From contig JALDRA010000001.1 of NCBI GenBank assembly GCA_031316235.1, positions 3,840,001-3,872,000 of the forward strand: DNA of 32,000 nucleotides. Direction: 5' to 3'. A program made the position numbers and the translations under genes. Below are positions 469 through 15,422 of this stretch, piece by piece. The notes under the pieces were generated by a model. The model saw only the letters and a list, made by a program, of their open reading frames with translations. It was not told the origin of the DNA and did not search any database. Source of the stretch: Candidatus Scalindua sp. (GTDB taxonomy: Bacteria; Planctomycetota; Brocadiia; Brocadiales; Scalinduaceae). Position 1 is the stretch's first letter. Every line of letters begins with the position of its first letter.

Positions 469-1779
469 ATGCAAAAAAAACAACCGTATATCGGGCCGGA
501 AGAGATCATACGCAAGAAGAGGGAATTTCTGATTCCCTGTGTTTACCATTTTTATCAGAAACCCATGCAGATTGTCCGGGGAGAGGGGCAGTATCTGTTT
601 GACCATCAGGGAAAACGCTATCTCGATTTCTATGGTGGTGTCTCTGTCCTCAATGCAGGCCATTGCCATCCAGAAATTACCGCTAAAATCTGCCAGCAGG
701 TAAATACACTGCAGCATACGACCACTATCTATTTAACACAACCGATTGTTGATCTTGCTGAAAAAGTAGCACAGATTACTCCAGGAAATTTAAAGAAAAG
801 TTTCTTCTGCGCCAGTGGGTCTGAGGCTAATGAGGGGGCACTTTTGATCTCCCAGCTCTATACGGGAAAACATGAGTTCCTGGCGCTCTCACACGGTCTC
901 CATGGAAGAACGAAGCTGTCTATGAGTGTTACGGGGTTAAAATTCTGGCGTACCGATTCTCATCCGGTTGGAGGAATCAGTTTCGTACCCAACGCATATT
1001 GCTATCGTTGTGTTTTCAATCGTATGTATCCTGATTGTGACATCGAATGTGCGAAACAGATTAAAAATGTTATTGAAACATCTACTTCAGGAGAGGTTGC
1101 CGCACTTATTGTTGAACCGATTCAGGGCAATGGGGGTATCATCACACCGCCTCAAGAATACTTCACCGTTATGAAGGAAATTCTGGATACATATGGAATA
1201 TTACTTATCGTGGACGAGATACAGACAGGGTTTGGTCGAACGGGAAAGATGTTTGCCATTGAGCATACGGGGGTAGAACCGGATATTTTGACATTTGCCA
1301 AGTCTATTGCAAATGGAACCCCTGCAGGGGGATTTATCACGAATGATGATATTTCCTCATCCTACAAGAGACCCGGTGCTTCAACATTTGGTGGAAATCC
1401 CGTTACCTCTGTTGCAGCCCTTGCTACTCTGGAAGTAATCGAAAAATATGGATTGATCCAAAATGCCGAAATAATGGGGGCATATCTTACCGATTCATTG
1501 AAAGGGCTTCAGGAGAGACATCCAATAATTGGTGATGTTCGCGGAAAAGGACTGATGGTAGGAGCGGAATTGATTGGAAATGCGAAAGAGCCTGCAGCAA
1601 TGGAGACCGACGTAATCCTTGAATACATGAAAGACAGGGGGGCACTTATAGGAAAGACAGGGGCAGGACGAAATGTCCTGACATTTCAACCCTCATTGAT
1701 AATTTCGAAGGAGAACATAGACGAGATAATTGAAATTCTTGATGACGCGCTGGCCTGTGTCACAACGAAAAGAGGATAA
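469..1779 (+). CDS. Class-III PLP-dependent aminotransferase (acetylornithine/GABA/ornithine-type; substrate not assignable)
   Basis: 436-aa ORF with family hallmarks SGSEANEGA, LIVDEIQTGFGRTGKMFA and FAKSIANG (Schiff-base Lys). Confidence 0.9.
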   Translation: MQKKQPYIGPEEIIRKKREFLIPCVYHFYQKPMQIVRGEGQYLFDHQGKRYLDFYGGVSVLNAGHCHPEITAKICQQVNTLQHTTTIYLTQPIVDLAEKVAQITPGNLKKSFFCASGSEANEGALLISQLYTGKHEFLALSHGLHGRTKLSMSVTGLKFWRTDSHPVGGISFVPNAYCYRCVFNRMYPDCDIECAKQIKNVIETSTSGEVAALIVEPIQGNGGIITPPQEYFTVMKEILDTYGILLIVDEIQTGFGRTGKMFAIEHTGVEPDILTFAKSIANGTPAGGFITNDDISSSYKRPGASTFGGNPVTSVAALATLEVIEKYGLIQNAEIMGAYLTDSLKGLQERHPIIGDVRGKGLMVGAELIGNAKEPAAMETDVILEYMKDRGALIGKTGAGRNVLTFQPSLIISKENIDEIIEILDDALACVTTKRG

Positions 1780-1830: not shown

Positions 1831-2472
1831 ATGAAAGACTGGTTTGAAGAACGATACCAGCTTAGAGAAATCATAGAGATAAATGTAACGAAGAAACTGA
1901 TACCAAAGGGTCTTAGTTGGTTTGGCTGTATGGGTGGATTGGCATTCGTAGCATTTCTGCTCCAGGTTGGAACTGGCGTTTTCCTCGTATTTCATTACGT
2001 ACCTGCCGTGAGTGAGGCATTTAACAGCGTTCAATATATAAGACATGCGGTTCCCTATGGATGGTTACTGCAAAAAGCCCACGCCGTGATTCCACATTTT
2101 ATGGTCTCGCTTGTATTCGCACACATGGTAAGGATTTTGTTTAAGGGAATCTACAAAAAACCGAGAGAGCTGCACTGGGTATCTGGAGCTTTACTACTGA
2201 TACTAACGCTCATGATAGCGTATACGGGTACATTTCTCCCAGCGAATAGTTTATCGTATTGGGGCGTAAGCGCTTCAGGGAGTGAGGCAGCTATGCCAAC
2301 AGTGGTAACCGATCATCATGTGGGTGCATATCAGGATGGAGGAACCATATCAAATCAGACATTTATTTTGATATATGCATTACACATCGCAGGTATCCCG
2401 ATCATTATGTCTCTCTTTATGGGAGTTCACTTTTTCATGATAAGGAGAACGGGAATTTCGGAACCATTATAA
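1831..2472 (+). CDS. b6-type cytochrome b (PetB-like N-terminal half of cytochrome b)
   Basis: 213 aa. The helix-B His pair lies in AHAVIPHFMVSLVFAHMVR. The helix-D His pair lies in LHIAGIPIIMSLFMGVHFFMIRRTGISEPL, and the protein ends as PetB does (HF.MIR..GIS.PL-stop). Cys33 sits in WFGCMGG. Confidence 0.9.
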   Translation: MKDWFEERYQLREIIEINVTKKLIPKGLSWFGCMGGLAFVAFLLQVGTGVFLVFHYVPAVSEAFNSVQYIRHAVPYGWLLQKAHAVIPHFMVSLVFAHMVRILFKGIYKKPRELHWVSGALLLILTLMIAYTGTFLPANSLSYWGVSASGSEAAMPTVVTDHHVGAYQDGGTISNQTFILIYALHIAGIPIIMSLFMGVHFFMIRRTGISEPL

Positions 2473-2515
2473 ATCGATTGTATGAAGAAATTCAATCCCT
2501 GCCCTTCCCGGGTAA

Positions 2516-2932
2516 ATGCATAAATGGCGTACAATGGTAGATTATCGCAAAGGACGAAGTAAAGAAGAGTTGGAACCGTTTTTCCCCAACGAGATACTCA
2601 GGCATACGATACTAACGTTTTTCCTGATTAGTGCGGTACTGGTTGGAGTCATCATCCTTCCTGAGTCGTTTCAGAAATCAATTGATGAATATGCCACGTT
2701 TCAGACCAGGCCGCCCTGGTACCTGCTCCCATTTTACCAATTATCATTTCTTGTCACGAGTAAGGCCTTGTATATTACGGCACTGGTAGTTTCTGCATTG
2801 TTATTTGTCGCTGTCCCTTTTCTTGACAGGGATGTAACGAGATGTTTGTGGAAAAAACCTGTTTTTCTTTCTCTTGTGATTCTGAGTTTATCAATGTTCA
2901 TCTTCCTGGGACTCATGTGTTTCTTCAAATAA
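2516..2932 (+). CDS. Cytochrome b C-terminal half / subunit IV (PetD-like)
   Basis: 138 aa with three predicted TM helices. PPWYLLPFYQL is the equivalent of the PEWY loop. The gene starts 43 nt downstream of the b6-like gene. The start could instead be the internal Met at 2534. Confidence 0.75.
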   Translation: MHKWRTMVDYRKGRSKEELEPFFPNEILRHTILTFFLISAVLVGVIILPESFQKSIDEYATFQTRPPWYLLPFYQLSFLVTSKALYITALVVSALLFVAVPFLDRDVTRCLWKKPVFLSLVILSLSMFIFLGLMCFFK

Positions 2933-2951
2933 AAAGATGGTTGAATGATGT

Positions 2952-3956
2952 ATGTGTACTAAATCGATTTTAATAATACTTATAACAAAGCTTCTGATTG
3001 CAGGTGTCATCCTGTCTTCAGGATGCCAAATGAACATATATCCGGAACTTGTAAAAAGGGGAGCTGCGTTTCCCGGATCAGAGAGATGTGGTGATTGTCA
3101 TATTGCCATTTACAAAGAGTGGGCTGATTCTCTGCATGCACAAAGTTATGTGAACGAGGAATTCAGAACTTCTTCAGGTGATTATGAGTTTCAATTCTGT
3201 TTGAGCTGCCATGTGCCGGAGACTGTTCTGACTGAATCTCAGGAAATCAAACCCAGGAGTCATAATGTAGAAGACGGGGTTGATTGCCAAGGGTGTCACC
3301 TCACATCAGATTGTTACCTTTCCGGCCCGCATTCAGGAATTGGTCCCCATCCAATAAAGAAGAATGAAGCATTGTACAAAGATAGCAAACTTTGTGGTAA
3401 GTGTCATATTGGTACATACGAGGAATATTTAAGATATGTAAATGATGAGAAGAAAGAGACGTGCCAGGATTGCCACATGCCCGCTGTTAAAAGGAAACTG
3501 ATACAAGATGAGCCGTGGCAGAAAATACACAAAAGAAAGGAGGGGAAGGCTCATACGTTCTCTCGCGCGGATGCTATGGAAGCTCATAAAGATTTTGTCG
3601 AATTATCATTTTCTGAAATAAAGAAAACCGATAATCTCATTGCCGGGAGGGTAAAAATTCGAAATATTTTAATCACACACTCTGTTCCTACCGGAGACTA
3701 CGGATACAGGGAGGTTCTTTTACTCATAAACCTCAAGAACAATTTTGGAAGAATAGTCCGGTCCCGGCATGAAAGCATGTTTGTGGAACTCGGCACACAA
3801 CTCAAGCCCATGGAGAAGAGGGAATACTTTTTCAGCTTTGCAATTGATGAGATTGCTGAAGAGATTACCGATCTGGAAGCCATCCTCTATAGAACAGACT
3901 TCAAACGGACAAACAAAACAGTACTTGCAAAAGCAGGGTTATCTGTTGACAACTAA
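2952..3956 (+). CDS. Pentahaem cytochrome c, probable lipoprotein or secreted protein
   Basis: Five CXXCH motifs (CGDCH, CLSCH, CQGCH, CGKCH, CQDCH). N-terminal hydrophobic segment ending LSSGC. CGDCHIAIYKEWADSLHA resembles the c554/multihaem family. Confidence 0.85.
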   Translation: MCTKSILIILITKLLIAGVILSSGCQMNIYPELVKRGAAFPGSERCGDCHIAIYKEWADSLHAQSYVNEEFRTSSGDYEFQFCLSCHVPETVLTESQEIKPRSHNVEDGVDCQGCHLTSDCYLSGPHSGIGPHPIKKNEALYKDSKLCGKCHIGTYEEYLRYVNDEKKETCQDCHMPAVKRKLIQDEPWQKIHKRKEGKAHTFSRADAMEAHKDFVELSFSEIKKTDNLIAGRVKIRNILITHSVPTGDYGYREVLLLINLKNNFGRIVRSRHESMFVELGTQLKPMEKREYFFSFAIDEIAEEITDLEAILYRTDFKRTNKTVLAKAGLSVDN

Positions 3957-3969
3957 ACCAGTAAATTGT

Positions 3970-5313
3970 ATGGATGAAATTAAAAATCAAAAGAGCGTCA
4001 TAATACTATCGGTGATAGCAATTATCAGTTTCGCATGCTGTATCTCTCTCGTTAAGATTGCGGCAGACAGGCCGGAATCTTCTGAATTCTGTGCACGCTG
4101 TCACAGTATGGAACCGTTTTTCACGTCGTGGAAAGAGACAGTAGCATGTAATGCCGGGTGCCTGGATTGTCACACTCATGACAAAAGCGGTAGGACCCTG
4201 TCCGTTGAAATGGAAGATAAGAACTGCACTGCCACAGAGTGTCACCCCATAGAGAACCTCATTTCTCATCCTTCTCAATTTGCAGATACTCTCTCTTTTC
4301 TTCATACTACTCATATAAAAGAGTATGATTCAAATCTCAGGTTGAAATGTACCGGGTGCCATTCGTATACGGGCCGAGAGGGGAGGGAGGGGGGTGAAAT
4401 CAGCCATTTCAGCATAGATACAAATTCTTGTTTTATCTGTCATTTTACTAATGGCAGCAGACATTCCTTCCCGGAAACTCAAGAGTCTTCGGCAATCGAC
4501 GACTGCATTTTGTGTCATGTTGATGTTCAGGTAAAGATGGATATTTACGGTAAAGTATTTGACCATTTAAAATATGAGAAAGAGCTCAGGATAGCATGTA
4601 ACAACTGTCATTTTGAGACTGTACAGGGGAATGGGGGGGTTGAACGTAAAAGCTGCTACTATTGTCATACAAAGATTCCGGAAGGATATACCGGGGCTGC
4701 AAGGATGCACAAAGATCATGTAAAAGATCATAAAGTTCCCTGTTCTCCCTGTCATAACCCAATAATACATAAGTGGGAAGATGAATATGCAGGTTTTGAT
4801 TTTACCGATAGTGATCTGAAGGCAGGAGAGCAATTAAAGACTTCCCGTGGGGAGAGTACTATAAAACCGACTGCTCCACCGGTGAGTCAGAGCGGAAGAG
4901 ATATTTTCGATACCGTACCCTACCGGGTACAAAAAGAGATCTATAAAGGTTTTGGCGGGAAAGGGATAACAGGGATTCCAGATCCCATGTTTCTTGCAGC
5001 GGTAAACTGTATTGCCTGTCACAGGGATAAAGGTCTCGTGGTAGAGCCGGCGATATGTAACACCTGCCACGAAAGGGGGTTTGACACTATTATGAAGGAA
5101 CAGAAGGTATTTGTTTCCCGTATGGTAAAGACCTTGTCAGAATTAATCAAAGAGTCACGGAAACAAGGGGTTCCAAATGAGCTGACTGACACTGCAGCAT
5201 ATAATTATGAATTGATTATGAAGGATGGGAGCTACGGTGTCCATAATATTAAATATATCAAAGATTTGATCGCGTTCAGTATAAATTGTTTAAAGGAAAA
5301 AATGAGTGATTAG
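3970..5313 (+). CDS. Membrane-anchored multihaem cytochrome c with NapC/NirT/NrfH-like N-terminus (10 CXXCH + 1 CX4CH)
   Basis: I place the start at ATG 3970 (MDEIKNQ...), because the listed start at 3769 overlaps the upstream gene. A single N-terminal TM helix is followed by CARCHSMEPFFTSW. There are ten CXXCH motifs plus CTATECH. Confidence 0.85.
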   Translation: MDEIKNQKSVIILSVIAIISFACCISLVKIAADRPESSEFCARCHSMEPFFTSWKETVACNAGCLDCHTHDKSGRTLSVEMEDKNCTATECHPIENLISHPSQFADTLSFLHTTHIKEYDSNLRLKCTGCHSYTGREGREGGEISHFSIDTNSCFICHFTNGSRHSFPETQESSAIDDCILCHVDVQVKMDIYGKVFDHLKYEKELRIACNNCHFETVQGNGGVERKSCYYCHTKIPEGYTGAARMHKDHVKDHKVPCSPCHNPIIHKWEDEYAGFDFTDSDLKAGEQLKTSRGESTIKPTAPPVSQSGRDIFDTVPYRVQKEIYKGFGGKGITGIPDPMFLAAVNCIACHRDKGLVVEPAICNTCHERGFDTIMKEQKVFVSRMVKTLSELIKESRKQGVPNELTDTAAYNYELIMKDGSYGVHNIKYIKDLIAFSINCLKEKMSD

Positions 5314-5445
5314 CCGGATGGAGCATACCGCTTCACAGCTGCTGTATAATCTGATTCTGGAATATCGTTCTTTTTTCTGATTCTCCATCTTATTCAGATT
5401 TACGTGGTTTGGTAACAAATGCTTTTTTAATAAACTGGGGTTTCC

Positions 5446-6615
5446 ATGCGTTTCAGTATTCTGTTCCTGCTGTCTTTATCAATTTTTTTATTTGTCTCAC
5501 TCGAAGAGAAATGGGTTTACGCCATAGAGAGTCAGTGGGAGGCTCCATATGTCACTGTGGCAAGCGGTTCTGCCGTAAATCATGATACCTGTACAGAAAG
5601 GTGTCATGTTGATTTCATGAATTATGAAGTTGAGTTTGAATATGGTGACAAGAGAGAGATTTTCAGGCACGGGAGACATTTACTTGGCCAGGAGATCGAT
5701 TGCATATCGTGTCACGAAGAAAGTATGATCAATACCGATGATGATCATGGAAAATTACTGATTAACCAAGAAGACTGTCTTTCCTGCCATCATGTTGAAT
5801 CTGAAGAGTTGGAATGTAAGACTTGCCACCTGAATATCGATGCCAATCCTATGAAATATAACCGTGAAAGATTTGTTCATGGATTCACGGTGTACGATGG
5901 TGTTGATTGCGGATTGTGTCATCGGCAAGACCCAACCGCTTCATTGAAAAAAGAGATAAACTGCATTAAATGTCACCATACTACACCAGACCTGGATTGT
6001 ATAAAGTGCCACAAGGAAGAGCTGAAAAAATCATTTACCACGGACAGTCTTCGGGCGAAAGAACTTGTATGGAGCGTTGCATTTGACCACTCAGCACATC
6101 CTGAGCAGAAGATCCGATGCGAAGCGTGTCACGTCATTACCGAAAAAAATTACACGGGAATACTGAAATACCGCTTGAATTGCAGCAAGTGCCATCATCT
6201 TTCCGGTGAAGAAATAGACTGCATAAAGTGCCACATAGACCCATTTGAGTTTTCAAGAGGGAAAAAATATGTTGAGGGAGTCGGTGCTGAAGCAGACCTG
6301 ATGTCAGTGGCGGTCACCTGTAAAGATTGTCATAGTCTTGATAATAACTCATTTAAATTTCTCGAAGTCAGGGAAAAATGTGTAGGGTGTCACAATACTG
6401 ATTATGGAGAACTCCATGATGCCTGGATTACATCAATTGGCAGGAGATCAAAGAGGGTTATAAACCATTCAATTTCATTACCGGAAACAGATAAAAACCT
6501 CCTCTCGGTCGTTCAAAAAAATGGGATGCACAATTTTAATCTGGCAGGATTACTCCTCGATTACCTGGAAGGTAAGAGGGGACATGTTCCTGATGAAGTA
6601 AAGCCGGATAAGTAA
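5446..6615 (+). CDS. Periplasmic multihaem cytochrome c (11 CXXCH + 1 CX3CH)
   Basis: Signal peptide MRFSILFLLSLSIFLFVSL. Eleven CXXCH motifs plus CTERCH within 389 aa, a very high haem density. Confidence 0.85.
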   Translation: MRFSILFLLSLSIFLFVSLEEKWVYAIESQWEAPYVTVASGSAVNHDTCTERCHVDFMNYEVEFEYGDKREIFRHGRHLLGQEIDCISCHEESMINTDDDHGKLLINQEDCLSCHHVESEELECKTCHLNIDANPMKYNRERFVHGFTVYDGVDCGLCHRQDPTASLKKEINCIKCHHTTPDLDCIKCHKEELKKSFTTDSLRAKELVWSVAFDHSAHPEQKIRCEACHVITEKNYTGILKYRLNCSKCHHLSGEEIDCIKCHIDPFEFSRGKKYVEGVGAEADLMSVAVTCKDCHSLDNNSFKFLEVREKCVGCHNTDYGELHDAWITSIGRRSKRVINHSISLPETDKNLLSVVQKNGMHNFNLAGLLLDYLEGKRGHVPDEVKPDK

Positions 6616-7162: not shown

Positions 7163-7813
7163 ATGAAAATTATTAAGTGTCTTACAGTTGGATTATTACT
7201 ATTAGTTTGCATGAGTAAGGTCAGTACCGCAGCATCTATTCTTTACGATTTTACGGGAGCTAACACTGGTACGCACGAATCACTTAACCTTACTGTGGAT
7301 GGAGTTGCTGTGAATGTTACTGCATGGGCAAATTTGAGCGCTGAGGATAGTCCCAGCTCATGGTTCCAGGTGATTGGTCAAAATGCCGGTGTTTATGATG
7401 GATCAACAGGATTAGGGGTACAATTAGGAGATGGATTTGACCATAACTCTGTGGATGGTCAGAGCGGCCCTGCCGATGGCATTGACCATGATGAAGGTTT
7501 GTTATTTGTATTTTCAAATCCAATCAATCTGAAATCAGTAAATTTCGGGCAATGGGGACTGAAAGATGACTTTAATCTTACTATCGATGGAGTTGACATA
7601 TTCCAAGATAATGCAAGTGACCCCTTTGTAGCTTCTTATACCGGAACCAACTTTTTAATATGGGCAGATGGAAATTCTGATCAATTTAGAATCCAGGAGT
7701 TAACCGTCGAACCTGTTCCGGAACCTGCTACGATCGCTATTCTCGGTATCGGACTGGCGGGTATTCTGGGCGGAACCGCACGGCGGAGGTTGAAAAAAGC
7801 TAAAGTCTCATAA
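7163..7813 (+). CDS. PEP-CTERM sorting-domain secreted protein
   Basis: AAAGGAGG lies 6 nt upstream of the ATG. Signal peptide MKIIKCLTVGLLLLVCMSKVSTAAS. C-terminal VPEPATIAILGIGLAGILGGTARRRLKK gives the PEP motif, a TM helix and a basic tail. Confidence 0.85.
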   Translation: MKIIKCLTVGLLLLVCMSKVSTAASILYDFTGANTGTHESLNLTVDGVAVNVTAWANLSAEDSPSSWFQVIGQNAGVYDGSTGLGVQLGDGFDHNSVDGQSGPADGIDHDEGLLFVFSNPINLKSVNFGQWGLKDDFNLTIDGVDIFQDNASDPFVASYTGTNFLIWADGNSDQFRIQELTVEPVPEPATIAILGIGLAGILGGTARRRLKKAKVS

Positions 7814-8257: not shown

Positions 8258-8546
8258 TTAATTTTTTACTAACTTTATCTCTAAATGACAATCTAAAGCT
8301 TTCGCATATTTTTTGATTGTATCAAGTGATGGTGAATGTTTTCCACTACTGAGTGACGATTCAAGCCTTGTAACTGAAGGAGATTTGGTTTCCCATACGT
8401 TCAGCAATTTGAGCTTGACTTAGACCGGCTTTTTGACGAGCAAGAAGCATTTCACGAAGTAAAGTAAACTCTGGTTCTAGTGCATCGTATTCTGCTTTTA
8501 CTTTTGGTTTACTTAGTGCAACTTTTTTTAATTTATTATGAGTCAT
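8258..8546 (-). pseudogene. HigA-like XRE-family HTH antitoxin, frameshifted
   Basis: The ORF 8546->8361 ends ...AGLSQAQIAERMGNQISFSYKA-stop. Removing one A from the AAA run (TTT at 8389-8391 on +) restores MGTKSPSVTRLESSLSSGKHSPSLDTIKKYAKALDCHLEIKLVKN, with the stop at 8258-8260. That is the canonical C-terminus of this antitoxin family. Confidence 0.7.
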
Positions 8547-8737
8547 TCTTAATTACCTCTTTCATACGCTTAATAGCAATATTTAATTCTTTTTTTGGCA
8601 TTTTTTGTGATTTCTTAATGAACACATGAAGCATAATAATTCTTTTGCCAATTTTAGTGCAATAAAAAACACGAGCAATGCCCTCTTTTCCTTTTACACG
8701 TAATTCAAATAAACCGTTGTTCAGTGATGATGTAAAG
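8536..8737 (-). pseudogene. RelE/ParE-superfamily (Gp49/HigB-like) toxin, 5'-truncated remnant
   Basis: Only the C-terminal ~65 aa of the family is present (..LNNGLFELRVKGKEGIARVFYCTKIGKRIIMLHVFIKKSQKMPKKELNIAIKRMKE). The upstream residues in the listed ORF are read-through of GC-rich foreign DNA. It overlaps the antitoxin start by 11 nt. Confidence 0.65.
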
Positions 8738-8759
8738 GACGTCGCCGTGCCTGCACTTG

Positions 8760-9125
8760 TTATGCTGCATCTGCAACCTGCACACATTGCTCGATTGCTT
8801 CGCCTGAGGTGCCATCTTCCAAGTGACGAAACAGCGTGCCTGATGCACCTTCTCCACTACCTTTTATCCACCATTCTAGACGCGCACCTACATAGCGTGC
8901 TCCGCTCCCCGAGACAGCAATTTCCATTTTGAACTGGCGGTTGTCGTATTCCACGACGGCTGTACTGTCTGTGGGATATAAAACCATAATGAGCTTTCCG
9001 CTTTCACACTGGTACTTGAAGGACAAACCTGCATCGCTGGACTGCTTCGTGGACGCGGTGTAATCGGTCGATGGTTGCCCGCAAGCGGTCAGGAAGACAA
9101 TAAGAGCGATAGATAAAAAACGCAT
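8760..9125 (-). CDS. MliC-family (C-type lysozyme inhibitor) lipoprotein
   Basis: I place the start at ATG 9125 (MRFLSIALIVFLTACGQ, lipobox LTAC). The pattern YQCESG...SGSGARY...EWWIKG...C matches the MliC fold signature. Local G+C is much higher than in the flanks. Confidence 0.7.
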   Translation of the reverse strand: MRFLSIALIVFLTACGQPSTDYTASTKQSSDAGLSFKYQCESGKLIMVLYPTDSTAVVEYDNRQFKMEIAVSGSGARYVGARLEWWIKGSGEGASGTLFRHLEDGTSGEAIEQCVQVADAA

Positions 9126-9245
9126 GGTATTTCTAACCTTCTTCAACTCTGCATTCGCACCGCCGCAGGCGGGGAGAATGCCCGCCATCACAGGCGACAA
9201 ACTCGGAGCGTAGCGGAGAGTTTGATGTCCTTGTGTATGGCATTG

Positions 9246-10187
9246 TTAGCCCTGTTCTGGCTTTCTGTTAGTGGCTTCTTCAAGCCGTTTCATAAGAATT
9301 GATTTGAGTTCAGTAATATTTTTGTACTCAGGGCAATTGTAAGCGGCTAAATCAAAATGAATTGATGTTCCTGCTTTACGATAGAGAATGACTCTCCTGC
9401 CGAGAGAGTGGGCGTAGCCGATTTCGTAATAGACACTAGGCCGCTCATTCGTTAAATCGCCAATCAAAAACTCACTAGTTCGTATTTCCTCAATTATTCT
9501 TTTGGTTATAACGTCTTCGTGCTCGATCTCATCCGCCCGAACAGCCGTGACGCCAAACCTGGAAAAGCATTCCTTGTACGCACCACAAATATCTTCATTA
9601 TCAGGATCTGAATTATCGATTGGCATCATAATGAAGGCAGTATTGGGGCGATATGACTGCGATAAATTAGGATTCTTCGAAGGCAACCCCGTTGGGATAT
9701 TCGCGGGAGTGATCTTAAGTAACTGGGTAATTCCTTCGAATTGTTCGAGACATTCTTCAAATGCTTTGTGAGCATCAGCAGGGGAGCTACATTCATCCTC
9801 CGACTGCCTGGGTGGATTTACCCCCAAGACAATATGCTCATCATAGAGCACCTCAATATCCCAAGACCTGTACTCGCGCAGTTTGAGGGCAGCCCTCATT
9901 CTTTTCACGCAACGCCCCACATCCTTTTCGTCGGATTCATTGAGAACTGGGGACGCTTTGAGTGTCGGTATGATTAGGGCAACAACGTTCAGTAAGGTTT
10001 CTTGGGCTTTTTGAGACAGTTGGCGACTTTCCTGCGTTAATTTATCCCAGTATGCGTTGCGACCCTCCTGACGATTCGTCCGACACGGACTTGAATCCTC
10101 ATCGCATTCTGTACACGCACCGTCAAAGAACACGCGTGCTTCTTCTGTAAGCAGGGATATTCCCTTAGAAAGTTCTTTTATATCCAT
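9246..10187 (-). CDS. Two-domain protein: unknown helical N-terminal region plus nucleoside 2-deoxyribosyltransferase-like / TIR-related Rossmannoid C-terminal domain
   Basis: The 313-aa ORF begins 34 nt after the upstream gene. Residues ~183-305 read AFIMMPI..(N)..VRADEI..I..II.EI..SEFLIGDLTNERPSVYYEIGYAHSLGRRVILY. This follows the D..(S/T)..E.G.A...G(K/R) core of NDT-like domains, with the conserved Glu at E255 (codon 9423-9425). Confidence 0.55.
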   Translation of the reverse strand: MDIKELSKGISLLTEEARVFFDGACTECDEDSSPCRTNRQEGRNAYWDKLTQESRQLSQKAQETLLNVVALIIPTLKASPVLNESDEKDVGRCVKRMRAALKLREYRSWDIEVLYDEHIVLGVNPPRQSEDECSSPADAHKAFEECLEQFEGITQLLKITPANIPTGLPSKNPNLSQSYRPNTAFIMMPIDNSDPDNEDICGAYKECFSRFGVTAVRADEIEHEDVITKRIIEEIRTSEFLIGDLTNERPSVYYEIGYAHSLGRRVILYRKAGTSIHFDLAAYNCPEYKNITELKSILMKRLEEATNRKPEQG

Positions 10188-10221
10188 AGAGCAAAAACTG
10201 CTTATTATGCGTCAGCTTAAT

Positions 10222-11112
10222 TTAATTGTTAGATATATATTCAACATCCAAAATAGGATCTGCAAACCAATTTTGTGTAGTTTCTAATGGCAAATCATTT
10301 TTATTTAGACCTATTAATTTTTTTACGGCTCGCATAACTGCGATTCTTACAATTTCCCGATTTCCTAGAATTTCTCTAACATTTTTTGATGATATTGAAA
10401 AAAAACCATGGAATATTGAATTTCTAATTTCCCAAATAGCTTTGAAATCATCTTCTGAATATCCGGCTATATCAGTCAAAACATACTTAACCTTCTGTGC
10501 TGCGCCTGCCTTAAACTCTTTCTCATGACCACATTTCTCGCATTTTTGAATTCTTTTAATGTCTGATTCATACAAAGTAGAAATCATATCTAATGCTGAA
10601 GTTAGAAAAATAAAACTATTTACCAAATCTTTCTCTTTTATTCCATATGTAAAAAATGCAAGAACCCGTGATAGTTTAGAGTTTATAGATGTCTGGAACA
10701 AATAAGTTTGAGTCAATGGAACTGGTGGTACCAAGGTTGCAGTTTGCGATTCATGCATGATACTTCTAAAACGGCCACCTTCTGAATATTCATGTTTTAG
10801 CTCTATAGGTTTGGTTTTTTTTATTTCATTTCCCGTGAGAAAAGTTAAGAGGTTCACATAATAGTCAAAAATATCTCGCGCTAAGTCTGCAACTATAAAA
10901 GCTTCAGGTTTTTCTTCGTCTTTCAATTCAACTGAGAAATCAATTTTGAGATTAAAAACCCCAGTTTGTCTATTTTTTTCATCAAACTCAGGAAATACTT
11001 GGAATTTACGAACTAATGGATGAGGTGGTTCACTAGACTTCAAGTCCTCTGCTTTAGTCAAAAAGAAATTGCCTGAGATATACGCATTAATATTCCATAT
11101 TTGTTCGCTCAT
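10222..11112 (-). CDS. Uncharacterised protein with C-terminal HEPN-like (Rx4H) domain, ApeA/MAE_28990-like architecture
   Basis: 296-aa ORF with AGGGA 6 nt upstream of the ATG. WEIRNSIFHG gives R230-x4-H235 (10408-10425), preceded by a helical region (LAFFTYGIKEKDLVNSFIFLTSALDMIS). The gene is very AT-rich. Confidence 0.5.
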   Translation of the reverse strand: MSEQIWNINAYISGNFFLTKAEDLKSSEPPHPLVRKFQVFPEFDEKNRQTGVFNLKIDFSVELKDEEKPEAFIVADLARDIFDYYVNLLTFLTGNEIKKTKPIELKHEYSEGGRFRSIMHESQTATLVPPVPLTQTYLFQTSINSKLSRVLAFFTYGIKEKDLVNSFIFLTSALDMISTLYESDIKRIQKCEKCGHEKEFKAGAAQKVKYVLTDIAGYSEDDFKAIWEIRNSIFHGFFSISSKNVREILGNREIVRIAVMRAVKKLIGLNKNDLPLETTQNWFADPILDVEYISNN

Positions 11113-11160: not shown

Positions 11161-11235
11161 CTAGGCAAAAAAACTTTCACAAAGAAACTCACATTCATTC
11201 TTTTCCAAATGCCGAATCAAATCTTTTCGTTTCAT
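11161..11235 (-). pseudogene. hicA: hicA toxin remnant (24 codons)
   Basis: Its ATG overlaps the hicB stop (ATGA). The translation MKRKDLIRHLEKNECEFL matches the HicA N-terminus, then diverges (CESFFA-stop) where a full toxin would continue for another ~40 aa. Confidence 0.6.
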
Positions 11236-11456
11236 GCGGAAATCACACCAAACGTTTCTTTAATTAGTTCCTTACCTTTATTCTCGTCTTCTGTCAGTTT
11301 GCGATTTGCTTCAAGAACCAACTGAACAGCTTCCGAAAGATTTTCTTTTGCTTCTTCCAATGTTTCACCCTGTGTGTTTGCACCTGGGAGTTCTTCAATA
11401 TATCCAATGTAACCATGCGGTGATTTCTCAAAAATTGCTGTTAAATTAATCTTCAT
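11232..11456 (-). CDS. hicB: HicB-family antitoxin (UPF0150)
   Basis: I place the start at ATG 11456, with AGGAGG 8 nt upstream. MKINLTAIFEKSPHGYIGYIEELPGANTQGETLEEAKENLSEAVQLVLE is the classic HicB N-terminal domain. Confidence 0.8.
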   Translation of the reverse strand: MKINLTAIFEKSPHGYIGYIEELPGANTQGETLEEAKENLSEAVQLVLEANRKLTEDENKGKELIKETFGVISA

Positions 11457-11544
11457 ATTTCTCTTTCCTCCTGACATTTTACGATAAATATAAGATCTTT
11501 TCGACAATTAGTTAAAAAGTGAGGGTTTCCCTTAAGAAATGAAC

Positions 11545-12909
11545 TTAATCTTTGCTGACATACATCTCACCACGAAGATGCAGTAGCGTGAAGTTGAATT
11601 CGCCTGCCAGCGTAATGGCCGCGGTAGCTGCCGCAAATTCCCTTGATGTGCAGATGCCCATAAACTTGAGGACTTCTCTTGCTGTCGGACAGATGAGCCC
11701 CTCTCTTGATGATGTTGCTCCTGCTTCTAAATTTGGCAATTCCACACCATAGATAAGATTTTCACCTTTAATTTCGACGTACACATTTTCGGTACATGAG
11801 ACATTGTACGGCCGGGGATTCACCTTGGTTCCTCGATAGATGGCGGGTATGATTTCACCCCCCATTCCTGAATAGAGAAAATGGCCCTGCTCCTGGGTAA
11901 CTCCCTGCCGCTCAATCTCCATGTAGGAGAGAAGTGAATCAATGCCCGTTTTGCTCATTTTTTCATACTCCGATATCGGCAATTTCACTTGTGCAGAAAC
12001 ATAACGTCCCCGGCGATTGCGTGGTGAGGGCTTGAGGTCGCCGTCAAAACCCATGGCGATAAGACTCTGAAGATACGTAACACCCTTTTCTTCAAATTTC
12101 TTATCTAATCTGCCTCTTGCAAAGCCGACCGCTGCCGAAGTATCTCCATGTCCTCTCGCATGTTCAAATCGGGTATGAAAACAGATAAAGAGGTAGCACT
12201 GCCCGTGGTGTTGTCTTCTCACAAACTCAACCTCATAAATCTCTCCGGAAAACTCACCGAGAAACTTCTCTTCCATCTCTTTTCTCAGTGCAGGCAGATA
12301 CACTTTTGCTGCCTGCACCGCTTTTTCCCGATCTTCTTCACTGGTAAAAACATACCCTAAGTTACGGGAGGCCCCAGCCCACTTTGCCACCTTTATCTCT
12401 GCCCCCCCCAGTTTATTCACCCTGAAACACCCGACACTGATACCCAGAGTCCCGAAACCTGGACCATAGGCCAGGATGTTTGTGAAGGTCTTGTCAACAT
12501 CACCAAAAACCTTTATCTGACCAGCATAAGAGTAGTACTCTTCGCTTCCACCGATGTAATTGTTCGCAAGCGGTCTGTATCTCATTTCTGACGTGCCATA
12601 AGGTTCAAGTGAAGTGCCGCATCTGGTACAGAGAGTATCCTGATCTCTTGCCTCCAGATGCCAGACGGATCTGTCCTTTGGACAACGCCATTGCATCAGA
12701 TATGGCTGTTCCGGCAGCTCCAGGTAGTTGAATGTATATCCAGTCAACTCTTCGATAACTCTTCGCCTGATCATGGCTGCCATACGATACTGCTCAGGCC
12801 CCTTCATCCCGTATTCTTCCACCAGGACCGACTCAGCCTTCCACGGCTGCACTTCACCTGTCTTGATTTTCTCGGCAATTTCTTCTCGTATCTTCCCTTT
12901 GTCACTCAT
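11545..12909 (-). CDS. Divergent HMG-CoA reductase-fold protein (function uncertain)
   Basis: 454 aa. The C-terminal half runs parallel to class-I [26 protein letters not shown] vs [32 protein letters not shown]..T vs [28 protein letters not shown] vs PSIEIGTVGGGT, and [20 protein letters not shown] vs GTVMAGELSLMAALAAGHL. These alignments are made from memory, not computed. Confidence 0.5.
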   Translation of the reverse strand: [454 protein letters not shown]

Positions 12910-12973
12910 CCTTTATATCCGCTCCTCATGGTTTTAAATTACCTGATGAACCACTGCAGGAAATGTAATGAAA

Positions 12974-14080
12974 TTAATAGGTATAAAACCCCTTTCCTGT
13001 CTTCCTTCCCAGGTCGCCTTTCTCAACCATATCGCACAGCGTTTTGCACGGTTTGTACTTATGGTCTTCATATCCTGCATAGAGTTCATCTAATATCACC
13101 TTGCACACATCAAGGCCAATCAAATCTGATAAGGCTAGAGGCCCCATGGGGTGATTTAATCCCAGGGTAACCGCCCTGTCAATATCCTCTGCCGTTGAAG
13201 TCCCGTCGGAGAATTTATCCATTGCTTCATTTAAGAAAGGTAACAGGAGCCGATTAACGATAAAACCAGGTGCATCTCCCGTAACAACAGGTGTTTTTCC
13301 CATTTCAGTTGCGACCTCCCTGGCAAATTCAACTACTCTATCCGGGGTGTTTTTTGCTCTCACTATTTCAACGAGCTTCATTTTCGGTACCGGATTAAAG
13401 AAATGGAGACCCACTAACCTGCCGGGATCTTTCAGAATTTGAGATAACGCATTAATCGAGAGTGAGGATGTGTTGGTTGCAAAGATTGTATCTTGAGAAC
13501 ATTCATTTTCCAGCTCCTTGAGCACCTCTTGCTTCAGTTCCATATCTTCTGTTAATGCCTCAATCACAAGGTTTGCGTGTTCCAGATCGTAAAAGTTTGT
13601 TGTGACCTTGATCCTGCCGAGAATCTCCTTTTTCAACTCATCCTTTATGGTTTTAGAAAGCAGTTTATCAATAATTCCAAGTGACTTTCTGGCAATCTCT
13701 TCGTGCCGGTCAATCACGATTACCTGATATCCCGTTTGAGCGCAGACCTGGGCAATGCCCCTTCCCATTGTCCCTGCCCCTATGATTCCGACCGTTCTCT
13801 GCTTTGCGGCCTGTTTTAACTCTTTCGGCGCTTCTTCGATCAGGTCTCCCAGCTTATATTCAGTGAAAGATTTCCTGATTTGAAAGTTACCATAATCATC
13901 CTCCAGTAACAGGTTGCAGTAGGGAACCCTCGTATGGCCGGGTGACGGAATCTCTATCTTGGTAATTCCTCGTACCGTACTCTTGTTTGCATAGACTTCT
14001 GCAACATTCCCCTGGCAGAAGATACATACTTTTACATCATAATACCACTTCTTATGGCAATCTTCACACTCAAATACCAT
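12974..14080 (-). CDS. Fusion protein: DUF35-type zinc ribbon/OB-fold plus NAD-dependent 3-hydroxyacyl(butyryl)-CoA dehydrogenase
   Basis: The start at ATG 14080 has AGGAGG 9 nt upstream and lies 1 nt after the thiolase stop. The N-terminus CEDCHKKWYYDVKVCIFCQG plus an OB-like segment matches DUF35. VGIIGAGTMGRGIAQVCAQTGYQVIVIDR is the Rossmann motif. The C-terminus GRKTGKGFY is typical of Hbd/FadB. Confidence 0.85.
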   Translation of the reverse strand: MVFECEDCHKKWYYDVKVCIFCQGNVAEVYANKSTVRGITKIEIPSPGHTRVPYCNLLLEDDYGNFQIRKSFTEYKLGDLIEEAPKELKQAAKQRTVGIIGAGTMGRGIAQVCAQTGYQVIVIDRHEEIARKSLGIIDKLLSKTIKDELKKEILGRIKVTTNFYDLEHANLVIEALTEDMELKQEVLKELENECSQDTIFATNTSSLSINALSQILKDPGRLVGLHFFNPVPKMKLVEIVRAKNTPDRVVEFAREVATEMGKTPVVTGDAPGFIVNRLLLPFLNEAMDKFSDGTSTAEDIDRAVTLGLNHPMGPLALSDLIGLDVCKVILDELYAGYEDHKYKPCKTLCDMVEKGDLGRKTGKGFYTY

Positions 14081-14081
14081 G

Positions 14082-15218
14082 CTACCCCCTCCTTTCAAAG
14101 ATATGTATTACGGCCGTTCCTCCTACACCTCCAATATTGTGTGTGAGTCCGATCTTCGCATCCTCTACCTGTCGGCTGCCAGCCTCTCCACGTAACTGGG
14201 TTGTCACTTCAAATACCTGGGCAAGTCCGGTTGCCCCGATAGGATGTCCATCTGCCTTGAGCCCCCCATCGGTGTTTATGGGGATCTCTCCCTTTAAGGT
14301 GGTTTTTTCTTTCCTGACCCAATCTTTACTTTCACCCGGCTTGCATATGCCAAGGTCTTCCATTGCCACCAATTCGTTAATGGTAAAACAGTCATGGACC
14401 TCTACAATATCAAGATCCTTTGGAGTAATCTCAGCCTGTTCGTATGCCTGTTTGCTGGCAAGCCTGGCAGCCTCGAGAGATGTGTGTACTTTTCGATGAG
14501 ACAGGGAAATATGGTCGGTAAACAAACTTGATCCGATTATCTTCACATCACGATCACTCTTCTGATTTTTTGATATTACTACTGCTGCAGCACCATCAGA
14601 AATAGGAGAACAGTCGAAGAGATTCAAGGGTGAGGCTATTAATTGAGCGTTCTTTATCATTTCACGGGAAACGTCCTTATGGTTAAAATGTGCCAGGGGG
14701 TTTAATCGGGAATTGTTATGATTTTTAAATGCTACCAATTCAAGATCTTCATGGGTTGTGCCATATTTGTGCATATGCTGCTGTGCAACCAGGGCGTAAT
14801 GTGCCGGAAAGATCAAGCCTTGCATCTGATCAGCAGATCTGTCGCCAGCCATTCCAAGGTTTTGAGTACTCTCTTGAGTTGTTGCATTCGTCATCTTTTC
14901 AACACCGACAATCAGAATATTGTCGAACCTTGACAAAGCGATTATGGCCTGATACAGTGCGCTGCTGCCAGAGGCACAGGCTGTCTCAACCCGGATAATT
15001 GGAAGCCGTAACTCTGGGAGTAAGCTGGAAACAACTGAGTTAAGATGCAACTGTTTTTCATAAGGCCCGCCCAGAAAATTGCTCACATAAACAGCCTCGA
15101 TATCTTCAATAGAAATCGGGCTATCGTTAATGGCATTATACATTGCCTGATAGGCCAATTCCGGCATGGTTTCTGTAAGCACTCCAAACTTTGTCCTGCC
15201 AACTCCAAGAACATACAT
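14082..15218 (-). CDS. Thiolase-family protein (acetyl-CoA acetyltransferase / SCP-x-type thiolase)
   Basis: I place the start at ATG 15218 (MYVLGVGRTKFG). Active-site Cys in VETACASGSSALY. C-terminal VHDCFTINEL and HNIGGVGGTAVIHIFE. Confidence 0.9.
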   Translation of the reverse strand: MYVLGVGRTKFGVLTETMPELAYQAMYNAINDSPISIEDIEAVYVSNFLGGPYEKQLHLNSVVSSLLPELRLPIIRVETACASGSSALYQAIIALSRFDNILIVGVEKMTNATTQESTQNLGMAGDRSADQMQGLIFPAHYALVAQQHMHKYGTTHEDLELVAFKNHNNSRLNPLAHFNHKDVSREMIKNAQLIASPLNLFDCSPISDGAAAVVISKNQKSDRDVKIIGSSLFTDHISLSHRKVHTSLEAARLASKQAYEQAEITPKDLDIVEVHDCFTINELVAMEDLGICKPGESKDWVRKEKTTLKGEIPINTDGGLKADGHPIGATGLAQVFEVTTQLRGEAGSRQVEDAKIGLTHNIGGVGGTAVIHIFERRG

Positions 15219-15222
15219 ATTT

Positions 15223-15235
15223 CCCCCCCCCCCCC
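15223..15235 (-). repeat. G13 homopolymer (C13 on +) forming the Shine-Dalgarno region of the thiolase operon
   Basis: Read directly. The coding strand is GGAAG(G)12-AAAT-ATG, so the tract ends 4 nt before the ATG at 15218. Confidence 0.9.
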
Positions 15236-15422
15236 TTCCATTTCTGTTTGGTACGTATGGTAGTAATTCAAAACACATAGTATATAATAAATCCCCTAAA
15301 AGCATCTTCTTTTTTTAATTTTTTAAACTTGCAATTTCTTGAGTATGTGATACCGTATTTATTATGAACTCAGTGTGTACGTCGGCCGATTTTTTTCTCA
15401 AGGACAAGGAAAAACATACCAT

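Follow-up and report, generated by a model that had tools for sequence, protein, structure and literature searches.

The stretch analysed here (the window) comprises 32,000 nucleotides of Candidatus Scalindua sp. (assembly GCA_031316235.1, contig JALDRA010000001.1, positions 3,840,001 to 3,872,000 of the forward strand) and carries, between positions 1831 and 6615, a cluster of five open reading frames (ORFs) on the + strand, all read in one direction, that encode a split cytochrome b6 and subunit IV followed by three cytochromes c. The cytochrome b6-like gene (1831-2472, 213 residues; PF00033, E = 3e-37) and the subunit-IV-like gene (2516-2932, 138 residues, roughly the C-terminal third of a long cytochrome b; PF00032, E = 1.8e-7) are separate genes, as a preliminary description of this DNA had proposed. 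Downstream lie the genes for a pentahaem lipoprotein cytochrome c, here called cytA (2952-3956, 334 residues, five CXXCH motifs), a membrane-anchored cytochrome c with 11 sites, cytB (3970-5313, 447 residues, ten CXXCH and one CX4CH; PF03264), and an exported cytochrome c with 12 sites, cytC (5446-6615, 389 residues, 11 CXXCH and one CX3CH). The 5, 11 and 12 haem-c sites (28 in total), the coordinates, and the gaps of 19 nucleotides between subunit IV and cytA, 13 between cytA and cytB and 132 between cytB and cytC agree exactly with that description, and its assignment of the three proteins to a five-haem lipoprotein, a NapC/NrfH-like anchored cytochrome and an exported cytochrome is borne out by the haem motifs, the lipobox residue Cys25 of cytA and the PF03264 match of cytB. 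The gap between b6 and subunit IV is 43 nucleotides, and 51 nucleotides separate b6 from an aminotransferase gene upstream. A hydropathy scan found four helices in b6, three in subunit IV and one N-terminal helix in each of cytA, cytB and cytC.

All five genes are under purifying selection, with ratios of nonsynonymous to synonymous substitution (dN/dS) of 0.10-0.23 against two Scalindua relatives. Because the same gene order recurs in about 45 Brocadiales contigs and the dN/dS values are in this range, the arrangement is not a product of chance. A scan for promoters and terminators returned counts at the level of shuffled sequence and was uninformative on the operon boundaries.

Over its full length, the b6 protein can be aligned with cyanobacterial b6 2zt9_A (E = 2e-45, ~40% identity) and also with plant b6 structures. 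Its b-haem ligands, His84/His98 and His185/His200, align to b6 His86/His100/His187/His202, the two helix-D histidines His185 and His200 have 14 residues between them, which is the b6-type spacing, and Cys33 aligns to b6 Cys35, the position of the covalent haem-ci cysteine in the b6f complex. In a set of 39 distinct orthologues from across the order, conservation is 100% for these four histidines and Cys33, and 95% for Arg205, which lies on the Qi (quinone-reducing) side. The split pair, the 14-residue spacing and the haem-ci cysteine place the protein in the b6-type subfamily, with haem ci itself being predicted, and the four conserved histidines are those of Rieske/cytochrome b complexes in general. 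The b6 gene also has the lowest dN/dS of the five (0.10-0.13). Scores against curated families stay below their cut-offs, at 165.6 bits for b6 against NCBIfam PRK03735 (cut-off 325) and 28.1 bits for subunit IV against TIGR01156 (cut-off 127).

Judged from the alignments, the Qo (quinol-oxidising) side of this core appears decayed and the Qi elements are the best conserved. The Qo-side PWDQ of b6 is PANS in the window protein, and subunit IV, when aligned to b6f subunit IV 7r0w_J (E = 7e-7), shows PPWY (residues 66-69) at the place of PEWY. Orthologues carry PPW[YF], PVWF, IPWF, [IV]PWF or VAWF, and a glutamate or aspartate at the second position of the motif was found in no orthologue whose motif was read. 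The combination of a PEWY/PDWY-type Qo motif and an intact cd loop that is expected of Rieske/cytochrome b complexes is thus missing, the motif alone being only suggestive. The cd loop, on the positive (p) side of the membrane, shows the lowest conservation of all regions (0.52; 38% gaps), and in Brocadiaceae it is 29 residues shorter (distance 74 vs 45), whereas Scalinduaceae keep the full b6 length. Conservation is highest (0.82-0.85) in the bc loop on the negative (n) side, the b6 C-terminus and the subunit-IV N-terminus, where the b6 ending MIRRTGISEPL and the n-side subunit-IV stretch EPFFPNE are conserved. Proline at position 2 of the Qo motif removes a side-chain hydrogen bond to quinol (Kao and Hunte, PMC4122944), and motifs of this kind have been noted in complexes for which reverse operation is proposed or established, and in some Rieske-containing complexes (PMC4122944). 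Because the ligands of the b haems and of haem ci are invariant and the n-side is constrained, the b6 core is probably functional and its Qi site matters, and because the Qo side appears decayed and a Rieske gene is lacking, a canonical bifurcating Q cycle is disfavoured.

The preliminary description held that the cluster contains no Rieske iron-sulfur gene, and this stands. The Rieske box pattern C.H.GC...C.CH, which detected the Rieske gene of locus L088 as a positive control, is absent from every frame of the 32-kb window and from 49 orthologous loci searched together with as much as 10 kb of flanking DNA, and PF00355 is absent from the precomputed Pfam lists of four orthologous loci. That description had also named a Rieske gene just upstream of the window as the finding that would overturn it. 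Synteny with relatives excludes such a gene, as the upstream genes there are an MMPL gene, an adenylate-forming-like gene, a U32-family gene, sometimes a TPR gene, and the aminotransferase gene.

A complex of canonical type could nevertheless be assembled if the Rieske protein were supplied in trans, with the multihaem cytochromes acting as a high-potential chain. Scalindua does have Rieske genes elsewhere in its genomes, in its other complexes (PMC13253579), whose products could dock in trans, the Scalinduaceae cd loop has its full length, and the nearest outside match of b6 by score belongs to the NCBIfam ExtP family, a member of which (P0489) adjoins the Rieske gene of L088. We nonetheless regard this arrangement as quite improbable, given that a linked Rieske gene was found in none of about 45 genomes, that the catalytic PEWY glutamate is missing from every orthologue and PWDQ is replaced, and that Brocadiaceae have lost 29 residues of the loop that lines the Qo pocket in solved complexes. 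The p-side regions are moreover the least constrained, and the possible sister clade in dsr loci, described below, is likewise without a Rieske gene.

The three multihaem cytochromes

The cytA protein combines a signal peptide with lipobox Cys25, five CXXCH motifs and a C-terminal Ig-like beta-sandwich. Because Cys25 is invariant and Gly24 nearly so among 44 cytA orthologues, cytA is probably a lipoprotein. The public gene call starts at Met27 (308 residues) and drops the signal peptide together with Cys25 (window 2952-3029); this call is probably too short, and the conserved lipobox supports the longer lipoprotein reading. Many database entries of the cytA family appear shortened in the same way. 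A cytA profile matches the pentahaem c552 of Thermochromatium tepidum, 5ze8_A, in three collinear stretches (E = 3e-12, 17% identity). The c552 protein, Geobacter ExtKL and the pentahaem cytochromes of cable bacteria have been described as one family (PMC11976967), and the partial match of cytA to NCBIfam ExtKL (45 bits, cut-off 250) agrees with that grouping. By these matches, cytA belongs to the pentahaem c552/ExtKL (PHC) family. In the AlphaFold2 (AF2) model of cytA, the C-terminal domain has a predicted local distance difference test (pLDDT) score of ~80-90 and the haem domain a mean pLDDT of 59, which is not confident; from this model, only the beta-sandwich and the top fold match were used, the latter being again 5ze8 (Foldseek E = 1.5e-7, with a TM-score of only 0.35). 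Like 5ZE8, cytA has a five-haem domain, an Ig-like domain and an H-x-x-PTG motif; unlike it, cytA is predicted to be lipid-anchored and is encoded beside a cytochrome b, and the identity is low.

In cytB, the NapC/NirT N-terminal region PF03264 covers residues 6-159 (32.1 bits, cut-off 24.1), with a transmembrane helix at residues 10-28 and the first CXXCH at residue 41. This first motif reads CARCHSM, which we take to be the CXXCHxM form of the quinol-site haem in the structure of Desulfovibrio NrfH. The CxxCHSM form is kept in Scalinduaceae and basal lineages and not in Brocadiaceae. Structural matches include NrfH 2j7a_C (E = 1e-4), OcwA 6i5b_A (E = 3e-7) and MccA (E = 1e-5), the C-terminal part being OcwA- and MccA-like with a conserved motif DGSxGVHNIKY. 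Since scores fall below the NrfH and TorC equivalog cut-offs, the NapC/NirT/NrfH assignment applies at family level only. A longer ORF of cytB from the upstream ATG at 3769 overlaps cytA and is unsupported by orthologues.

The cytC protein has an N-terminal signal sequence followed by c7/c3-type haem repeats (PF14522, E = 5e-16; PF02085, E = 8e-11), and its structural matches are OcwA 6i5b_A (E = 8e-9) and PpcA-type c7 proteins. The tails of both cytB and cytC align to OcwA residues ~264-496; OcwA itself, from Thermincola potens (PDB 6I5B), is a nine-haem terminal reductase on the surface of a Gram-positive host. The number of haem sites in cytC differs between lineages, with 11+1 in Scalinduaceae, Hypogeohydataceae (L005) and a basal Brocadiia metagenome-assembled genome (MAG) JP1 (L037), and 5+1 in Brocadiaceae. 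In three Scalindua loci a shorter six-haem protein replaces cytB and cytC, and in several Brocadiaceae, Wunengus and Loosdrechtia loci the two are fused into one ORF of 656-855 residues with 17 haem motifs (variants of the cytB-cytC region: L028, L029, L031, L039, L040, L049). Where Brocadiaceae have separate cytB and cytC genes, the last few bases of cytC are shared with a Hydrolase_4 alpha/beta-hydrolase gene.

Occurrence in Brocadiales and relatives of the b6-like protein

The best matches of b6 are Candidatus Scalindua proteins (83-87% identity), followed by those of Brocadia and Jettenia (~53%). A scan of 185,579 species-representative genomes with the cytA profile returned 44 loci at 42% identity or more, most of them labelled Brocadiales, with Scalindua, Brocadia, Jettenia, Kuenenia, Loosdrechtia and Wunengus among the named taxa; the remainder bear generic labels only (Planctomycetota, 'Candidatus Brocadiia', 'uncultured bacterium'), and one, a contig of 2.2 kb, had been binned as Thermodesulfobacteriota, probably wrongly. 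The cytA homologues found in other phyla, at 22-32% identity, have no b6 match alongside. The conserved order runs from the adenylate-forming-like gene through U32, sometimes TPR, and the aminotransferase gene to b6, subunit IV, cytA, cytB and cytC. The cluster is ancestral to the order, being present in Scalindua, Brocadia, Jettenia, Loosdrechtia, Wunengus and Hypogeohydataceae. In nearly every locus that extends far enough upstream b6 is intact, including L010, L023, L029 and L049, where it was recovered by targeted tblastn.

Kuenenia is the only genus truly without b6. All three Kuenenia genomes (K. stuttgartiensis CSTR1, K. hertensis and Bin_40; L030 9646-13593, L041 and L086 7706-11682) keep a subunit IV of 102-104 residues, cytA, cytB, cytC and the hydrolase gene, and at the same site in all three the b6, aminotransferase and U32 genes are gone. 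Toxin-antitoxin-like or unrelated genes lie upstream there instead. This pattern raises the idea that b6 and subunit IV are a decaying relic and that the cytochrome trio is the working unit, in which cytB would by itself oxidise quinol in the manner of CymA or NrfH and pass the electrons to cytA and cytC. A frameshift in b6 on one Scalindua contig (L018) and the shortening of subunit IV in several Brocadiaceae would fit such decay. We give this idea little credence, since the strong constraint on b6, the invariance of its cofactor ligands and its intact state in nearly every locus all speak against it.

Studies of respiration in anaerobic ammonium-oxidizing (anammox) bacteria describe three Rieske/cytochrome b complexes, R/b-1, R/b-2 and R/b-3 (PMC13253579, PMC12954380, bioRxiv 10.1101/855817), of which R/b-2 and R/b-3 have an NAD(P) oxidoreductase subunit and R/b-2 also a hydroxylamine oxidoreductase (HAO)-like octahaem protein (PMC12954380). 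Genes for NAD(P) oxidoreductase and HAO-like proteins were found neither in the window nor in the orthologous loci, and the cluster does not have the composition of R/b-2 or R/b-3. The literature probably counts only three complexes because the model genus Kuenenia has lost b6. The K. stuttgartiensis orthologues kustc0394 (CAJ71139) and kustc0393 are annotated only as hypothetical multihaem proteins and have a 'Cyt Expr' of 0 in a published supplementary table. In the literature searched, no main-text mention was found of kustc0393-0396 or SCALIN_C01_0226-0230, kustc0393 and kustc0394 appearing in supplementary tables only, and no description of this Rieske-free b6 module was found.

For Brocadia, Shaw et al. 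(PMC7188810) place EX330_00385 and EX330_00380 among the inner-membrane cytochromes of a model of extracellular electron transfer, labelled as a CymA-like cytochrome and a membrane-anchored undecahaem cytochrome, with no cytochrome b mentioned. By gene order and annotation these two, which follow U32 and aminotransferase genes, are the probable Brocadia orthologues. Their read counts were low (PMC7188810), and the syntenic genes, EX330_00395 to EX330_00380, were not induced. The strongly induced 'pentahaem' cluster of the same study, EX330_07910-07915, was rejected as the orthologue, its upstream neighbour being a sigma factor.

When b6 was compared with 1.84 billion representative proteins, two close clusters were found (83% and 60% identity) and the next match was at 42% or less. 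In a neighbour-joining distance tree of 93 sequences, the Brocadiales b6 proteins form a clade of their own in 200/200 bootstraps, and the few proteins that most often appear as their sister (P0132, P0137, P0171) do so with moderate support. Two members of this sister clade are encoded directly 3' of dsrA, dsrB and dsrD-like genes (L089 6900-11443 and L090 6852-11358) in high-GC uncultured bacteria that resemble sulfite or sulfate reducers. The sister relationship suggested by the tree is only a lead. No Rieske gene was found in either dsr-linked locus, nor any annotation or literature for them, and the pair is apparently a second, undescribed Rieske-free b6 module. These loci share with the window cluster a split or fused b6 and subunit IV, the conserved cysteine and c-type cytochromes on both sides; their partners are a NarI/DsrM-like protein, a dihaem lipoprotein, a monohaem protein and a ~575-residue HEAT-like lipoprotein, and they differ in having no large multihaem cytochromes and a Qo-like motif of PQWY or EPWY.

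The top NCBIfam match of b6 is ExtP (NF040969), at 170.8 bits against a cut-off of 290, compared with 394.7 bits for a true member (P0122), and a genuine member of the ExtP family also scores highest among the representatives from outside Brocadiales. ExtP was rejected as a specific relative, as the distance tree does not place it next to the Brocadiales clade and its distances are larger (1.36-1.52) than that of cyanobacterial b6 (1.18). The contexts of ExtP-family genes are mixed, in that L088 has a Rieske gene and L087 has none. L088 (8154-13231), from a Chloroflexi genome (CSP1), encodes an Fe-S/FAD NAD(P)-type oxidoreductase, the ExtP-family cytochrome b, a 212-residue protein, a Rieske protein and a cytochrome c, an order resembling the NAD(P)-oxidoreductase-containing Rieske/cytochrome b complexes described for anammox bacteria. 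A further locus in an unclassified MAG (L050, 9833-13963) has a cytA-like gene (32% identity, apparently split) followed by a 233-residue membrane protein that looks by eye like an FdnI/HydC-type cytochrome b. After it come a multihaem gene resembling cytC and a gene 50% identical to the adenylate-forming-like one, so that the adenylating enzyme travels along. If the resemblance of the membrane protein is true, the cytochrome modules can pair with another kind of b subunit.

Compared with the known enzymes, the cluster shares with b6f and menaquinol:cytochrome c reductases the split b6 and subunit IV, four plus three helices, the four histidines and the cysteine at the haem-ci position. It differs from b6f and bc complexes in having no Rieske gene, PPWY or xPWF for PEWY and PANS for PWDQ, and no cytochrome f or c1, three multihaem cytochromes standing in the cluster instead. 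The preliminary description had likened it to the Rieske-less Cbc complexes of Geobacter, an analogy that holds only loosely, for the proposed function and probably not for homology. Only one Geobacter Cbc cluster has a PetB-type cytochrome b, namely Cbc6 (PMC2825233), known as Cbc6/ExtMNOPQS (GSU2930-2937) in Geobacter sulfurreducens, and it includes a Rieske protein, GSU2933, together with cytochromes of 2, 5, 10 and 12 haems (PMC2825233). The likeness, drawn from descriptions, lies in a cytochrome b with multihaem cytochromes of 5, 10 and 12 haems against 5, 11 and 12 sites here. Of the Ext models, b6 and cytA have ExtP and ExtKL as their top matches, below the cut-offs, and cytB and cytC match none. 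The window cluster is thus a b6-type core without the Rieske gene that its closest compositional analogue has.

The Rieske-free CbcL, CbcBA, Cbc3, Cbc4, ImcH, CymA and NrfH follow the same idea of a membrane-bound, quinol-reactive subunit that passes electrons to periplasmic multihaem cytochromes, and the family of the cytB head, NapC/NirT/NrfH, also includes CbcS, CymA and NrfH. Their membrane subunits are of other kinds. CbcL and CbcBA have a di-haem cytochrome b of HydC/FdnI type, Cbc3 has an iron-sulfur protein, CbcV, and a cytochrome b, CbcW, Cbc4 has CbcT with 4x[4Fe-4S] and the integral membrane protein CbcU, and a bare NapC-type anchor is described for others; none has been reported with a split b6/subunit-IV pair that carries the haem-ci cysteine.

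Neighbouring genes

The window opens on the 3' end of a TPR-repeat gene (1-454, + strand; Pfam TPR matches, in synteny with L001 5274-6494), which is full-length (406 residues) at the same position in Scalindua japonica and a few other Scalindua loci and missing from the cluster in Brocadiaceae. The aminotransferase between it and b6 is a class-III, pyridoxal phosphate (PLP)-dependent enzyme (469-1779, + strand, 436 residues; PF00202, E = 3e-107), for which every NCBIfam match is below its cut-off. It had been listed in the preliminary description simply as the upstream neighbour. The gene is indeed there, but its place is not incidental, being kept across the order: it stands directly 5' of the cytochrome b gene in most Brocadiales loci that extend that far, and in Brocadia (L002) and Hypogeohydataceae (L005) its stop codon touches or overlaps the start of the cytochrome b gene. 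It may share a transcript with the cytochrome b gene.

Throughout Brocadiales, three genes precede the cytochrome b gene, usually 3' of an MMPL transporter gene (window 469-1779; L001 1903-7899; L002 3245-8004; L005 4654-7999). The first encodes a ~390-residue protein with the adenylate-forming-type motif GETAGTTGRPK and no Pfam or NCBIfam match, the second a 669-residue fused U32 protein with a UbiU/TrhP-like N-terminal half and a UbiV-like C-terminal half, and the third the class-III aminotransferase. A reading of hyp387 as an outer-membrane porin was ruled out by the GETAGTTGRPK motif, read by eye.

From 7 to 32 kb, the window contains genes unrelated to the cytochrome cluster, including LeuRS and integrase genes. 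Directly 3' of cytC lies a gene for a PEP-CTERM-anchored secreted protein (7163-7813), whose position is not conserved in relatives. The region just 3' of the cluster is variable, with a MliC-like lipoprotein (8760-9200), two unannotated ORFs (9246-11112) and small toxin-antitoxin-like genes on the minus strand (8361-8787 and 11232-11507), namely a Gp49/HigB-like gene with an adjacent helix-turn-helix (HTH)-like ORF, and a UPF0150/HicB-like gene. Further on, also on the minus strand (11545-15305), an HMG-CoA-reductase-like gene (27.4 bits, at the cut-off and weak) lies adjacent to a 3-hydroxyacyl-CoA dehydrogenase and a thiolase-like gene; these three may be a lipid- or isoprenoid-related unit.

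Proposed electron flow between menaquinone and the cytochromes

On balance, and with modest confidence, we consider that the cluster encodes a Rieske-independent b6-type menaquinol/menaquinone:multihaem cytochrome oxidoreductase, specific to Brocadiales, that serves in accessory electron transfer. The earlier suggestion of a quinol:periplasmic or extracellular electron-transfer module remains the best available reading. An accessory branch for electron export is favoured because cytB has an NrfH-like head and the cytochromes resemble export proteins, and also because expression is low in standard anammox growth and b6 is dispensable in Kuenenia. Heads of the NrfH/NapC type are usually quinol dehydrogenases. 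In such an enzyme, b6, with four helices, haems bL and bH and a putative haem ci at the conserved cysteine, would form the membrane core together with the three helices of subunit IV. The single-helix, NrfH-like cytB would be the likely membrane-bound c-type partner in place of a Rieske protein and cytochrome f or c1, and the lipid-anchored cytA and the soluble cytC would lengthen the haem wire into the extracytoplasmic space. The menaquinone pool, in which a published scheme of electron flow in Scalindua places menaquinone-7 (PMC13253579), would thus be coupled to a low-potential multihaem network, and no bifurcating reaction of the Rieske-dependent kind would occur at Qo. The Qi/haem-ci site would be where quinone reacts, bH and bL carrying electrons across the membrane, and the first haem of cytB, NrfH-like and on the outer face, may serve in its place or in addition. 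The role would most likely be that of an accessory respiratory branch, and the likeliest job would be to pass quinol electrons to periplasmic or extracellular acceptors, for example Fe(III), Mn(IV) or electrodes.

Electrons may also flow the other way, from cytochrome c to quinone, and because the Qi site is conserved and the Qo motif is of the proline type, this direction is a serious rival. In that case, the cluster would be an electron-input module, an electrogenic cytochrome c:menaquinone oxidoreductase in which low-potential electrons, for example from hydrazine, formate or Fe(II), enter the multihaem cytochromes and pass through bL and bH/ci to menaquinone at Qi, and it would conserve energy because the protons for reduction at Qi are taken from the cytoplasm. 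The pattern of conservation described above, with the Qi side, the haem-ci cysteine and the n-side loops best kept and the Qo elements decayed, speaks for such a module, and Qo motifs with proline at position 2 (the APWY clade; PPWY in Acidithiobacillus ferrooxidans) have been linked to complexes whose reverse running is proposed or known (PMC4122944). The enzyme that passes hydrazine electrons to quinone has been described as still unknown (bioRxiv 10.1101/855817), and the closest relative of cytA with a solved structure, T. tepidum c552, is low-potential, going by the title of Chen et al. 2019 (cited in PMC11976967). Kuenenia, however, grows by anammox without b6, so that the module cannot be a universal link from hydrazine to quinone, its low or undetected expression in standard anammox growth is ill-suited to a core catabolic enzyme, and the usual activity of NrfH/NapC-type heads runs in the opposite direction. 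Taken together, we hold the input direction to be possible but rather unlikely.

Several observations weigh against the accessory quinol-oxidising branch that we prefer. Quinone reduction would account for the strongly conserved Qi side no less well than quinol oxidation does, and the retention of the cytochromes in Kuenenia implies that they may not need b6. On an electrode, the probable Brocadia orthologues EX330_00385 and EX330_00380 changed by log2 fold changes of +0.32 and -0.57, which were not significant (PMC7188810). A compartment predictor gives conflicting results for the Kuenenia proteins (kustc0394 A, kustc0393 P), and no outer-membrane porin-cytochrome gene was found near the cluster. 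To these are added the Rieske proteins encoded elsewhere in Scalindua, and the fact that we infer from the sequences in which direction electrons flow, in which compartment and to which acceptor, and also that the five proteins join in a single complex.

A more far-reaching account would join these elements. The NrfH-like multihaem cytochrome would have replaced the Rieske cluster, giving either a machine that works much like a Q cycle without a Rieske protein or an electrogenic cytochrome c:menaquinone reductase, and this would be the long-sought enzyme that delivers hydrazine electrons to quinone in Scalindua, Brocadia and Jettenia, with Kuenenia having found a different solution. The upstream trio, comprising the adenylate-forming-like protein, the homologue of the UbiU/UbiV-like oxygen-independent hydroxylases and the aminotransferase, might then make a dedicated cofactor or a modified quinone. 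We see only a slim chance that this account is correct as a whole.

The bioenergetics of anammox has been built on Kuenenia, with the result that three complexes have been counted and the accompanying cytochromes have been treated as unlinked hypothetical proteins. The cluster described here would add a fourth, Rieske-free b6 module that is conserved across most other anammox genera. It is a further candidate for a route that joins menaquinone to multihaem cytochromes outside the cytoplasm, one that bears on the reduction of metals and electrodes or on electron uptake, as well as a test case of what a b6 core with a putative haem ci could do without a Rieske protein or a canonical Qo site. Together with the dsr-linked sister clade, it suggests that Rieske-free b6 modules are a wider, overlooked class in anaerobes. 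Should the cluster prove to be a Rieske-free energy-conserving enzyme, or the missing entry point to the anammox quinone pool, its interest would be high.

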